Origin: a virus
Lineage: Duplodnaviria > Caudoviricetes
DNA length: 40,428 nucleotides
IMG/VR virus record: IMGVR_UViG_3300010383_000016
Location: 1 to 40,428 of that record
Strand: one strand, 5' to 3'
Made by a program: the position numbers and the translations under genes. Positions 21,131 through 31,277 of the stretch are shown one piece after another; positions within the stretch are counted from its first letter, which is position 1; every line of letters starts with the position of its first letter. The notes beneath the pieces are model-generated. The model worked only from the letters and a program-made list of their open reading frames with translations, searched no databases and was not told the DNA's origin.

Positions 21131-22075
21131 CTATTTCACCAAGAACCGTCGAACCGACTTCGTAACAGCGAACCGCTCATACACATCCGGCATTTCGGCC
21201 TTGAGCTTCTTTGTTTCCAGCGACGTCGTGTCACTCGACTTCCACGTGAATGCCTTCTCTCCGCGGAAGTAGGCGATCTCGTTCTCGCCCATTAGGGACT
21301 TGATCAGGTTCTTGCAAGCATCCAGGCGTCCCTCAGCAGCCTTGACCTCTTCCTGCGCCTCGTACAGGTCGTTGATGACCGTCTCCATATCGTCAGGAAT
21401 CAGAATGCTGCTCTCCGGCTTCGAAGTCGGATAAAGGTGGTTCAGCAGGTCCGTCGACGCCGCGCTACCGTCGACCATTGGGGCGATGCCTTTCATGACA
21501 TGCTCCGTCCAGAAGTTCCGCTCGATATCAATCAGGTGTTTAATGACCGTCTCGTCACGCTCGACGTACCTGTACTTGAAGGTGTTACCGCCGATCAGGA
21601 CGGCGAAGAATCCGTAATCAAGGCCTAGCACCGACAGATAGTGCTGCAGCTGAATCGCGTAGTGGTCGGGGATGCGCTCGCCCTCCCAGTCTTCTTTGGC
21701 GAATGCGTTCGCAGTCTTGACCTCGAGGATTCCCTTCCGCTTGTTCTCGTCCGTGATCAGGCGGTCGACGTTACCAAGCATGAACGGGTGATCCGGGTGC
21801 CGGTAAAGCTTGTTACTTCGCTGGACCTTGAGGCTTGTCCGACTTGCGAACTCACGGGCGACGAGATCCTCGAGCTGGTTGCCCCAATAGGCTGCCTCGC
21901 CGGCTTCATCCTGCTCGATCTGGCCTGTCTTCTCGAGGAACACGGCCACCTTTGACTTCCAAGGGTTGAGGCCAGCCACTGCTGCGGCATCCGAGCCCCC
22001 GATCCCTTTATTGCGGAGCTTCAACCATTGCTCGCGTGTTAAACCTTTCGTTACTGCTTCTACTGTCATTGCCAT
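21131..22075 (-). CDS. yqaJ: YqaJ-like exonuclease (lambda Exo family)
   Basis: 'WLKLR.KGIGGSD', 'WGNQLE', 'GNVDR', 'LEVKT', 'Y.IQLQHY'. Confidence 0.93.
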   Translation of the reverse strand: MAMTVEAVTKGLTREQWLKLRNKGIGGSDAAAVAGLNPWKSKVAVFLEKTGQIEQDEAGEAAYWGNQLEDLVAREFASRTSLKVQRSNKLYRHPDHPFMLGNVDRLITDENKRKGILEVKTANAFAKEDWEGERIPDHYAIQLQHYLSVLGLDYGFFAVLIGGNTFKYRYVERDETVIKHLIDIERNFWTEHVMKGIAPMVDGSAASTDLLNHLYPTSKPESSILIPDDMETVINDLYEAQEEVKAAEGRLDACKNLIKSLMGENEIAYFRGEKAFTWKSSDTTSLETKKLKAEMPDVYERFAVTKSVRRFLVK

Positions 22076-22605
22076 GATTGATATTCCCCCTCATTTGCCG
22101 CTGCCACCTCTAGCAGTGGAATCGAAAAAGTACTTACTATCGAGTCAGTGATGGCCCTTGCCATCTTGATTACGAGAAATAATCTTGTATTCTGAAGTAC
22201 GAAGTACTCCATAAATCCGCCAACATTGACGATCCCCTTAATGTGATAATCACCGACCGCCGGCAGTTCTTTGTTCACCCCAGCCCCGGGTTTAAGTGGA
22301 CCAGCTGCCACTTGAAAACGCCCAACCGAAGTTTGTTGACCAAGACAAGCGTCAATCGCAATAACCTTCTTTGTCCCGTCAATCACTTTTAGCCTTTCGG
22401 TCAAGTTCACAGCATTAACTGGTTCATCCAAGGTTCCGATAACGTTCGTATACCCAAGTTTTTGAAGGTAAGTGCCAACCAAGGGCCCCAACGAATCTCC
22501 GGTTGATCGGTCCGTTCCGATGCAGACGAACACCACGTCTGAAAGTGGAATCTGCGATACTAGTGATGCTAGTACACTCCGAAGTCCATCCGAATCAGTT
22601 AACAT
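22066..22605 (-). CDS. yyaC: Spore protease YyaC (GPR-related)
   Basis: 'VCIGTDRSTGDSLGPLVG', 'GTLDEPV.A.NL', 'IAIDACLG', 'PLKPGAGVNKELPAVGD..I.GIVNVGGFMEYFVLQNTRL'. Confidence 0.92.
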   Translation of the reverse strand: MLTDSDGLRSVLASLVSQIPLSDVVFVCIGTDRSTGDSLGPLVGTYLQKLGYTNVIGTLDEPVNAVNLTERLKVIDGTKKVIAIDACLGQQTSVGRFQVAAGPLKPGAGVNKELPAVGDYHIKGIVNVGGFMEYFVLQNTRLFLVIKMARAITDSIVSTFSIPLLEVAAANEGEYQSWQ

Positions 22606-28778: not shown

Positions 28779-29489
28779 TTATAAGCCAAAGGGGGTTATA
28801 TTTGTATCTTTAATTTGGGATATCTTATCGGACAGCTCTTTTCTTTTCCCCTCTAATACCTCTTTATTGATCCTCGATTTCCAAATTCTGTACAACTTAA
28901 TCAAGTTAGAATAAAGTTTATCATTGTCCCCCCTATATCTGCAAAGCGGAAGGTACAATGACTCAACTAATTCACAATATGCGTCCGATAACGGATTAAA
29001 TGCCAAGTTTTCATCTGCAAGACCACATGTCATTGCTGCAGCGAAATATTCTAATTGATTTAAAACATTACTGGCTCCGGCTGCACCCATGGAACTCACG
29101 ACAATAGTGTATTCAGACAATTCCCTCTCGTTCTTACTAAATGTACCTGCCAAGTCAATTTCAATTTTGCTTGCCTTAATGAATGTATTCCTAATTGCCT
29201 TGCGTTCTGCCTCTTCAGTAGCTCTTTCCATAAGTGTCTTCCTAAGTTCACTAACTCGTTGACTGTAAGTATTCATCGCTGGGAAAAAGTCAGATGCAAA
29301 CCAATCTAAATATTCTAAGCTCTTTTCCATGGCAGCCCTTTGATTTTTCTGCCTAATGTCCATTTTAAGCAATTTCAATTGATATAATCCTATTATTACA
29401 GTGGCAAACAGACCAATACTAGTAACAAAATAAAGGGATTCTAATATAGGTCTCCATTTTGTCAGAAAATCAAGCAACGAAATCGCCAC
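28779..29489 (-). CDS. AT-rich moron, DUF4760-like membrane-anchored protein
   Basis: N-terminal TM followed by 'VLNQLEYFAAAM..GLADE' and 'YSNLIKLY..WK'. Confidence 0.65.
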   Translation of the reverse strand: MAISLLDFLTKWRPILESLYFVTSIGLFATVIIGLYQLKLLKMDIRQKNQRAAMEKSLEYLDWFASDFFPAMNTYSQRVSELRKTLMERATEEAERKAIRNTFIKASKIEIDLAGTFSKNERELSEYTIVVSSMGAAGASNVLNQLEYFAAAMTCGLADENLAFNPLSDAYCELVESLYLPLCRYRGDNDKLYSNLIKLYRIWKSRINKEVLEGKRKELSDKISQIKDTNITPFGL

Positions 29490-29566: not shown

Positions 29567-29599
29567 AAAAAAGCCCCGCAAGCAACAGCCGCGGGGCTT
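29567..29599 (-). terminator. Intrinsic terminator after endolysin
   Basis: Minus strand AAGCCCCGC-...-GCGGGGCTT-TTTT. Confidence 0.8.
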
Positions 29600-29603
29600 C
29601 GTT

Positions 29604-30371
29604 CTATAAAAAATAATTCTCACGCATTGCTGGTTCCAGCAAAAGCAAACGTTGCTTCGCCCATTCTTGTTCCCCTTCGCTCACCGTCGGCTTGCCGAAT
29701 TGATCAAGCCCTTTCGCAGTGTTGTACGTCCAAAGGATAACGTTGGCGATCCTAAAAGCAAGTTCATCCCTCTGGGCACTGGATTCAGCATACTTTAAGT
29801 GCTGTTCAAGATCGGCGACGTCGCGGCGCACCCTGTTGTAGTCGTAGCCTGGGCATTCCGTCTCATTCAGCTCGCCGTGTGCCTTGATTGCTTGGAAGTT
29901 CGGCAGTGCCGTCTTCACGGTAATGATCGTCGCATAGAGCGCGGCTCGATCGGCGTCCGTCAGAGCGTCCGTGTGGGCGTATTCACCCTCGACGCAGATG
30001 TGGACCGTGTACGCATTGTTCGAGCCGACGCCGTAGACGCGATCAAGGACGTCGTTGACCTGGTACGCTTGTCCGGCGCGGATATAGAAATGATACGGGA
30101 TACCGGGTTCCCCTTTCTTCTCATATGCGCGCCCGTTGATATGATTCGTCGCATGCCGAGCAGCCGTGGCACCCGATGATTTTGGCACGGCGGTATGATG
30201 GAGCACGATCGTGGTCAGATCATTGATGTCGCGTTTCGCTGGATATCCATTGATGACAGCGAGCTCCGCCCACGAATAGGCTGGATTCTTCGGGAGCTGG
30301 TCTGTGATGTCCTGTAGTTGGTTGACACCGAGCTTATTTACGAGGTTGGTCGGGAATTGCAGATTCCGCAT
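29604..30371 (-). CDS. Endolysin, N-acetylmuramoyl-L-alanine amidase (Amidase_2-like)
   Basis: 'IVLHHTA', 'GIPYHFYI', 'HGEL.ETECPG'; RBS AAGGAGG before ATG 30371. Confidence 0.88.
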   Translation of the reverse strand: MRNLQFPTNLVNKLGVNQLQDITDQLPKNPAYSWAELAVINGYPAKRDINDLTTIVLHHTAVPKSSGATAARHATNHINGRAYEKKGEPGIPYHFYIRAGQAYQVNDVLDRVYGVGSNNAYTVHICVEGEYAHTDALTDADRAALYATIITVKTALPNFQAIKAHGELNETECPGYDYNRVRRDVADLEQHLKYAESSAQRDELAFRIANVILWTYNTAKGLDQFGKPTVSEGEQEWAKQRLLLLEPAMRENYFL

Positions 30372-30981
30372 CGGCGCTCCCTCCTTCCGCCGGCTGCGTG
30401 CTGCCCGGGACAACGTACACCTGTTGCTGCTGCGCTGCCTTGTCGATGCCGCCCTCCACCCACTGGTAAACTGCCGTCGCAGCGAGTTGCACGACCAGGT
30501 TGATCGCCGGCATCCAATCATTCACCTTGTCGCCGAGGTTAATGTTCCCCGTCAGATACCCGGCCAAGATGATGATGTTCGTGATCGTGACGATTAGGAA
30601 AGCCTGAAACTTCGTTTTGGTCAGCTTTTTCAGATACTCTCGCATTCTCTTCAATCCCTTCAAAATGATGCTCCGTCCGATGGATCGGGCAATAGATCGT
30701 GCCGGCCGTGACAACGTGGAAGGCCAGGATGATGCCGGGCGGATACTTCCGCTTAAGGGCTTCGACATAGGCGCATCGCATGGCTTCCCTCCTTCCAGCA
30801 GATAGATGATATAGTCAAGCTTGTCTTGCTCGTGGTCCCGAAGCGGCCGCGGCAGCCGGCGGTTGATGTACTGCTTAAGCCGACGGTTCTTTAGGAACAA
30901 AATAAGAGCCCCCGCGAGGGAGCCCCATGATAAGCCGTTCTTGATGAAATGGCTGATCGTATCAAGGATCCAGTCGAGCAT
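30334..30981 (-). CDS. Holin-like membrane protein (possible internal start at 30645)
   Basis: N-terminal TM; C-terminal 'KLTKTKF..' two-TM '..EGGIDK' holin-like domain; upstream of amidase. Confidence 0.65.
   Translation of the reverse strand: MLDWILDTISHFIKNGLSWGSLAGALILFLKNRRLKQYINRRLPRPLRDHEQDKLDYIIYLLEGGKPCDAPMSKPLSGSIRPASSWPSTLSRPARSIARSIGRSIILKGLKRMREYLKKLTKTKFQAFLIVTITNIIILAGYLTGNINLGDKVNDWMPAINLVVQLAATAVYQWVEGGIDKAAQQQQVYVVPGSTQPAEGGSADAESAIPDQPRK
30539..30781 (-). CDS. Overprinted ORF nested in holin gene (Cys/His-rich, 80 aa)
   Basis: AGGAGG (30793-30788) 6 nt before ATG; different frame from holin. Confidence 0.5.
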   Translation of the reverse strand: MRCAYVEALKRKYPPGIILAFHVVTAGTIYCPIHRTEHHFEGIEENARVSEKADQNEVSGFPNRHDHEHHHLGRVSDGEH

Positions 30982-31105
30982 ATCGCTCCTCCGGATCCGG
31001 CGGCTCATAGCAAAGCAAAAAGGCTGTCTCTTCGCCGAGCAGCCCCTTCACCATCATATATGTTTGATCGTCGACCGCCTTCTCGAGCGGGATCACCTCA
31101 AGCAA
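30962..31105 (-). CDS. Small hypothetical protein
   Basis: RBS GGGGAGGTG then TTG; overlaps holin start. Confidence 0.5.
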   Translation of the reverse strand: MLEVIPLEKAVDDQTYMMVKGLLGEETAFLLCYEPPDPEERYARLDP

Positions 31106-31124: not shown

Positions 31125-31156
31125 ATAAAAACGAGGCACCCTTTACGGAGCCTCGT
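31125..31156 (-). terminator. Terminator between virion genes and lysis cassette
   Basis: Minus strand ACGAGGC-...-GCCTCGT-TTTT. Confidence 0.65.
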
Positions 31157-31277
31157 CTCGTATGTCTTGCGAATCATAGTAGTCCTGGCCGCGGCCACCG
31201 TGCCCGCCGCTCATCAGGATAATATTCAGGATAATGAAGATGATCACGATGATGACTGTCCCGGTTCGCTGGCTCAA
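31143..31277 (-). CDS. 44-aa single-TM peptide (not in ORF track)
   Basis: MSQRTGTVIIVIIFIILNIILMSGGHGGRGQDYYDSQDIRDEAP; TTG start after AAGGAG. Confidence 0.55.
   Translation of the reverse strand: MSQRTGTVIIVIIFIILNIILMSGGHGGRGQDYYDSQDIRDEAP

Follow-up and report, generated by a model that had tools for sequence, protein, structure and literature searches.

We describe here a phage lysis locus that likely makes three proteins, namely a membrane-anchored long form, an ordinary short lysis protein and Z, a small protein predicted to bind zinc. The locus lies on the minus strand of the window, i.e. the whole 40,428-base virus record that was analysed, between an LPD38 gene (1580 aa) and an Amidase_2 endolysin gene. 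As listed in Table 1, a single frame carries a membrane module, a linker and a holin-like domain with an internal start, and gene Z is read over the linker in the -1 frame. The preliminary description, made from the window alone, had claimed the 215-aa ORF, an AGGAGG-6 nt-ATG alternate-frame ORF and an internal ATG with an AAGGGA RBS. All of them were found as described, and they recur in relatives: the long frame, the Z frame and the internal SD with its ATG were present in 50/50 loci. Sequence comparison of these loci demonstrates that the three starts are conserved, that Z is under purifying selection, that stop codons have been purged from the long frame, and that the fusion partners are holin-like or amidase genes. 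We consider it very probable that both frames are translated.

Table 1. Features of the lysis locus in the window (all on the minus strand)
Feature	Position	Strand	Remarks
Terminator-like site 3' of endolysin	29570..29600	-	
Endolysin, Amidase_2	29604..30368	-	PF01510, E 2e-11; overlaps 3' end of holin gene
Long ORF, 215 aa	30334..30981	-	membrane module, linker and holin-like domain in a single frame
Short product, 103 aa	30334..30645	-	two hydrophobic helices, predicted holin
Gene Z, -1 frame, 80 aa	30539..30781	-	core 30781-30646 conserved; tail beyond 30645 not
Doubly coded linker	30646..30777	-	long-frame residues 69-112; stop-free in both frames
SD of internal start, AAGGGA	30655..30660	-	9 nt 5' of ATG 30645
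N-terminal module, residues 1-68	30778..30981	-	no family match
SD of Z, AGGAGG	30788..30793	-	6 nt 5' of ATG 30781
Terminator-like hairpin and T run in module TM codons	30905..30926	-	subset of relatives, unproven
Gene U, 47 aa, small, acidic	30962..31105	-	TTG start inferred; overlaps long ORF start; conserved upstream neighbour
SD of long ORF, GGAGG	30988..30992	-	6 nt 5' of ATG 30981

Because the window encodes an integrase, a repressor, a terminase, a portal, a major head protein, a tail spike and an internal virion protein, its gene content suggests a temperate, probably short-tailed phage. We infer its host from relatives named Paenibacillus and Cohnella, among them Paenibacillus amylolyticus, P. 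xylanexedens and Cohnella sp.; the envelope of these hosts is monoderm. Upstream of the long ORF, a plausible homolog of gene U occurs in 44/50 cassette loci, some of the U subtypes being Cys-rich, and U is probably a fourth member of the cassette. Between the LPD38 gene and U lies a 44-aa single-TM ORF (31143-31277, minus strand) with homologs in L028, L042 and L063, a possible further membrane lysis component. Elsewhere in the window, an AT-rich DUF4760 gene (28779-29489, minus strand) lies past the terminator of the endolysin gene, has a promoter-like site of its own and looks like accessory cargo. Positions 22066-22605 (minus strand) match phrog_8268 'spore protease' at E 3e-34 and may represent a phage gene linked to sporulation.

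Relatives were collected by protein searches, which gave 14, 52 and 60 of them, and their DNA was obtained from viral, genome and metagenome scans and genome searches. After duplicate removal, 50 distinct cassette loci were analysed, comprising the window, 38 loci reached via long-protein or holin-domain queries, 5 via a Z profile, 3 weaker matches and 3 from a module-only search; dereplication at <60% linker identity gave 30 loci. Start codons were picked by inspection, and many loci were recovered with long-frame queries. Free-standing holin-like genes without the module were excluded (L006, L014/L015, L049, L051 and L085-L093); at L014, the upstream gene encodes a coiled coil and a C-terminal TM. 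Because the loci are related, product probabilities would overstate their independence, and we therefore relied on counts instead.

A class-wide search located the cassette in 3/401 genomes, all three already in the set, and among the genomes searched the cassette is restricted to Paenibacillaceae. No match was obtained by tblastn against cultured phages with four queries. Pfam, PHROGs and NCBIfam scans returned nothing usable for the long protein, the module, Z or U, and neither Z nor the long form had a Foldseek match at E <= 0.001. Searches of full-text, mainly open-access literature likewise turned up neither this combination nor the families of the module, Z and U. As far as these searches reach, the earlier suggestion of a possibly undescribed arrangement holds for literature, cultured phages, and family and fold libraries alike. 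Present annotation overlooks the cassette; one 90%-identity protein cluster has calls of 290 to 414 aa, every one named amidase, and Z turned up as a called protein just six times.

All three starts carry SD sequences well above background. In the window, the computed SD pairing was -9.5 kcal/mol for the long start, -15.0 kcal/mol for Z and -8.7 kcal/mol for the internal start, as compared with a median of -2.9 kcal/mol for 189 control internal ATG/GTG codons. Values of -6 kcal/mol or below were reached by 9% of these controls, but by the long start in 25/30 dereplicated loci, by Z in 29/30 and by the internal start in 30/30. On average, the long SD is weaker than those of Z and of the internal start. 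The aligned Z start position holds ATG in 38 of the 50 loci, GTG in 9, TTG in 1 and ATC in 2. In the window, 112 codons separate the long from the internal start; in relatives, the distance is about 100-135 codons.

The linker is kept open in both frames beyond expectation. In 44 loci, the -1 frame contained no stop in 1964 linker codons, compared with 108/2823 in the module and 144/2640 downstream. The Z frame was open in 30/30 dereplicated loci, where 3.8-5.0 would be expected given the long-frame protein; conversely, the long frame was open in 30/30, where the expectation given the Z protein ranges from 5.8 with own codon usage to 11.1 on a conservative estimate. The codon choice of Z expresses this same finding at codon level. 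Of the Leu/Ile/Val codons of Z that precede an A, none ended in A or G (0/72; controls 34/55 and 75/204), and of those that precede a G, none ended in A (0/75; controls 16/83 and 51/269), while 31/103 ended in A before C or T. The base right after the Z start, a place where an A would make TGA in the long frame, was never A (0/48, versus 20/30 internal starts and 8/24 window genes).

Substitution patterns point to Z as the frame under sequence constraint. In 17 related pairs (682 codons), linker differences amounted to 0.40 at Z codon position 3 and to 0.25 and 0.17 at the others, and the module in the same pairs differed most at its own codon position 3 (0.48). Amino-acid identity of the linker was 0.70 for Z versus 0.53 for the long frame, and Z-silent substitutions that change the long frame accumulated at 0.55 per site. 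The preliminary description had proposed an alignment check of the alternate frame and a check for suppressed synonymous variation; when run, the former found RBS, start and C..CxxC/H conserved, and the latter found linker substitutions following the Z frame. The frame constrained in sequence is that of Z, and the odd middle of the long frame is mainly a spacer that is kept open.

The fusion was also recovered by searches that did not depend on the long protein. The Z-first profile gave 15 matches at E <= 2.2e-5, of which 9 were already in the set and 5 of the 6 new ones were full cassettes; the other, L065, has neither a start nor the long frame. The 5/5 new true loci, ascertained without the long protein, were all fused. 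Six weaker Z-profile matches, inspected among 15 fetched, contained no cassette. A module-only profile would report free copies of the module, so its results address ascertainment, the main worry here: 29/29 matches in 401 genomes and 10/10 in 93 genomes, mostly the profile's own loci, lay inside frames of 184-431 aa. The phase of the U-to-module overlap varies (32 versus 12 of 44 loci), yet the lysis gene shares the long frame at 50/50 loci, and the Z-to-lysis-gene phase never flips. As the junction shows an ATGA-overlap geometry with TGG, TGC or TGT in place of TGA, the fusion probably arose through loss of the stop codon of the module.

In all 50 cassette loci, the module of about 70 aa runs in frame via a linker of 27–55 codons into the first lysis gene. 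It opens with an amphipathic helix, followed by a short hydrophobic one, a basic one and finally one that is coiled-coil-like, and the long-form model (pLDDT 71, pTM 0.31) places module helices at residues 2-15, 19-31, 33-42 and 50-62, followed by an unstructured linker and then a helix running into the holin. The N-terminal TM previously noted does exist as a hydrophobic helix, but the window copy is short and only weakly hydrophobic, with a Kyte-Doolittle 19-residue mean of about 1.0 when every fourth residue is sampled; the best 17-mers of the module family average 1.47. The charges around this helix (-1.4 before, +5.4 after) suggest an N-out/C-in topology. The module is well conserved, with 0.70 identity in related pairs. 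Its best PHROGs match is the unnamed phrog_24169 (13/44 members, E 3.5e-4), and the nearest Atlas clusters, at a score of 0.89, are named holin, which we take as a lead only.

From its Cys and His residues, Z is predicted to be a small zinc-binding protein. The window protein has C3, C31-P-I-H34 and H38, and C..C[PG]x[CH] is kept in 41/50 Z sequences, 35 of which have a further His. Nine Z variants keep the central helix without the Cys motif (L003, L005, L008, L013, L024, L037, L041, L050 and L083); these are short, and two of them begin with ATC. With 9/50 lacking the Cys motif and 6/41 lacking the last His, zinc binding would not be universal. The Cys/His gene of the preliminary description is supported in its core motif and not in its HDHEHHH tail, which is specific to the window and incidental because it is the -1 reading of the holin ITNIII codons. 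Z ends 1-10 codons past the internal ATG in 41/50 loci, versus 34 codons in the window. Its first Cys lies no more than 6 residues from the start, and there is no hydrophobic leader, signal peptide or lipobox. The Z model (pLDDT 74, pTM 0.46) has two helices and a beta hairpin (residues 28-39) at the CPxH turn. When the Z profile was run against PDB sequences, the best E was 0.29, and the Atlas matches for Z were all under 0.9.

The short product lies directly upstream of Amidase_2, is small and has two hydrophobic stretches, which fits the holin layout. Its direct match to holin families is weak (phrog_29195, E 0.083); a profile link of 97.5% connects it to family A8, where 4 of the 5 scanned members (of 7) match the phrog_9987 holin at E 8e-10 to 1e-15. 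By profile link and position, it is predicted to be a holin. The locus had first been described as a holin locus. This is correct for the 39/50 loci whose first lysis gene is holin-like (groups of 28 and 10 plus L084, a broken holin), but the arrangement is not holin-specific, as an Amidase_3 endolysin takes this place in the other 11 (Pfam E about 1e-55 for 6 scanned). In a tree of module plus Z (122 columns, modest support), the four partner labels require 9 changes, and the amidase appears in three places. All 4/4 amidase-first loci with listed neighbours have a separate hydrophobic holin-like gene next. Because it heads endolysin genes as well, the arrangement is a portable lysis-head cassette and not a holin oddity.

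Some partners deviate from this pattern. In L084 (G301), the cassette is intact while the holin frame ends 23 codons past the internal ATG and other frames carry holin-like sequence; this is either a decayed prophage or an assembly error. Holins with an additional soluble helical C-terminal domain of about 70 aa are found in L010 and L066 and in proteins P0005 and P0008-P0012. A second in-frame start codon lies 2-3 codons before the internal ATG in the window (30645-30654, minus strand) and in L003, L005, L008, L010, L032 and L042; it recalls the classic dual-start motif and may be a by-product of the acidic tail of Z.

Taken one by one, the elements of the cassette have precedents in dual-start genes, embedded spanins, endolysins with internal starts, a fusion of holin to endolysin and an overlapping lysis inhibitor. 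Dual-start holin/antiholin genes, such as lambda S105/S107, 21 S68/S71, and SPP1 24.1/24.1* and 26/26* (PMC6116005, PMC9671378, PMC6316719), resemble the cassette in having one frame, two starts with RBSs, and a long and a short lysis product. Their products, however, are nearly identical and their starts a few codons apart, in contrast to the 112 codons seen here; the cassette adds a separate conserved membrane module, an overprinted third gene and a role in heading endolysin genes.

Two-component systems are described for PBSX XhlA/XhlB, SPP1 gp24.1/gp26, and the BhlA of P. larvae phages with its second holin (PMC6316719, PMC6937236, PMC6070908), and these monoderm holins share with the cassette a single-TM accessory and, next to an amidase, a holin with two TMs. 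The module also sits after a large virion protein, in the slot that BhlA occupies in API480 (PMC6937236). It resembles BhlA/UviB/TpeE (PF10960) in layout, with one N-terminal TM and then a helix, but 0/44 members match that family. Unlike in XhlA/gp24.1, its hydrophobic helix is at residues ~17-30 and not C-terminal, and no XhlA match was found. In contrast to two-component accessories, the module was never free (29/29 fused).

Closer to the 11 amidase loci is the Clostridium sporogenes fusion of a TpeE/BhlA-family holin to an endolysin, in which a short N-terminal TM and helix stand in frame with the enzyme and all endolysin is reportedly fused (PMC9527704). The cassette differs from it in having an internal SD and ATG for free enzyme, a second gene in the linker and, in the 4 amidase-first loci with listed neighbours, a separate holin-like gene next. 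Two-polypeptide endolysins of phages of Gram-positive hosts also use in-frame internal starts in a lysis gene (PMC9430671; CTP1L, PMC4777826); the short product of CTP1L is the cell-wall-binding part, whereas that of the cassette is the whole amidase or holin, to which the long form adds an anchor.

Z in turn recalls the embedded spanins Rz/Rz1 (PMC9671378), where a small lysis gene is overprinted on a gene for a protein with an N-terminal TM. Rz1 is an outer-membrane lipoprotein with a signal peptide, whereas Z lacks both signal peptide and lipobox, has a Cys/His motif and extends past a second in-frame start. Small soluble lysis regulators are also exemplified by F379_024 of Campylobacter Firehammervirus (PMC7692668) and T4 RIII (PMC6116005). 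F379_024 resembles Z by position, as its gene is upstream of the endolysin gene and overlaps the start of the latter; neither regulator is described as encoded within a lysis gene that is extended in frame.

We tentatively propose, at somewhat less than even confidence, that the module serves as single-TM accessory in a monoderm holin system of two parts and tethers a fraction of the first lysis protein at the future lesion. This role is suggested because the module is common to holin-first and amidase-first loci and stops after it are purged. The module would insert N-out/C-in and fill the role of BhlA, XhlA or gp24.1. As it would exist solely in a form fused to the first lysis protein, some of the holin or amidase would be held by the accessory at the inner membrane face. 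Competing SDs would set the long:short ratio and thereby tune the time of lesion formation, while Z, co-produced with the short product, may act as a soluble cofactor of the lesion step. Against this proposal, hhalign gave the module a probability of only 1.3% against 7 Paenibacillaceae BhlA sequences. The weak direct holin match of the window's short product, the Z variants without the Cys motif, a linker no more basic than Z dictates and the broken holin of L084 also count against it.

It is conceivable, but rather unlikely, that the portable cassette of Paenibacillaceae phages (U, module and overprinted Z) forms its own class of lysis regulator, with Z, a zinc finger encoded within the tether, as a switch to hold or release the tethered form. 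It would clamp on whichever lysis gene is first, giving tethered and free forms, and the Z switch would possibly sense metal or redox state.

Similarly doubtful is an antiholin role, in which the long form would be a stretched lambda S107 whose anchor and basic linker keep the holin domain or amidase inactive and so delay lysis until membrane depolarisation. The two in-frame starts, each with an SD, fit such an inhibitor, as does a linker net charge of +5.2 right before holin helix 1; the inhibition by S107 stems from positive N-terminal charge (PMC6116005). However, the starts are 112 codons apart instead of 2-9, the linker basicity does not exceed what the Z sequence forces (2.6 versus 3.4), and a poison acting on the holin domain cannot work in the 11 loci with an amidase partner.

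It is improbable that the cassette serves translational control, with ribosomes that read through from the module damping initiation at the SDs of Z and of the lysis gene, thereby setting the levels of both, and the fused protein being incidental. The weak constraint on long-frame linker residues (0.55 per site), the interchangeable partner, and Z and internal SDs that on average surpass the long SD would all suit this explanation. Damping does not require the same frame, yet the lysis gene shares the long frame in every locus while the U overlap flips, and the conservation of module residues also speaks against it.

Mu com overlaps the start of mom, and in activation of the Mu Com type the target start is hidden in a stem-loop. 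That Z is a Com-like RNA-binding zinc finger acting on how the lysis transcript is translated or terminated, with the long form secondary, seems very unlikely. Z does overlap the start of its neighbour, like com over mom, and the module contains a terminator-like hairpin with z < -1.5 in 13/30 loci (10/30 in a second window). Comparable hairpins at about +70 nt occur in L004, L011, L026, L031 and L041, with z down to -4 in a subset, and the hairpin could attenuate the lysis genes. However, the internal and Z starts showed no structure (mean folding z +0.73 and +0.07; n=30), and matches to Com were at chance level (PF10122, 1/39, E 0.026; phrog_6417, 2/39, E 0.013). RNAalifold on 39 sequences gave no consensus fold for the hairpin, and the named structure had 62% of its cells paired versus 58.5% when shuffled.

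Plain adjacent genes with an accidentally open frame would gain some credit from the relatedness of the loci and the recovery of many with the long protein, but this explanation is largely refuted by the fused Z-first loci, the module-only profile that is always fused, the stop-free -1 linker frame, both frames open beyond expectation, the stop-avoiding Z codons and the Z-codon substitution pattern, and retains hardly any probability. A programmed -1 frameshift at the SD-like G run of the junction, which would join module and Z into an anchored zinc finger with the ATG unused, was rejected as the least probable, since a Z-frame stop lies within 3 codons upstream of the Z start in 8/50 loci and a canonical Z start codon is kept in 48/50.

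Returning to the tethered accessory as the preferred reading, the locus is compact and has three start codons that can be mutated separately, and natural swaps between holin-first and amidase-first loci, or between Z with and without the Cys motif, serve as controls, the Cys-less variants being natural loss-of-zinc controls. It also represents a clean dual-coded gene of a bacterial virus, with selection on both frames as judged by comparing relatives. The cassette bears on lysis timing in phages of Gram-positive hosts and on why many of them, SPP1 and PBSX included, need two holin-like proteins (PMC6116005, PMC6316719).
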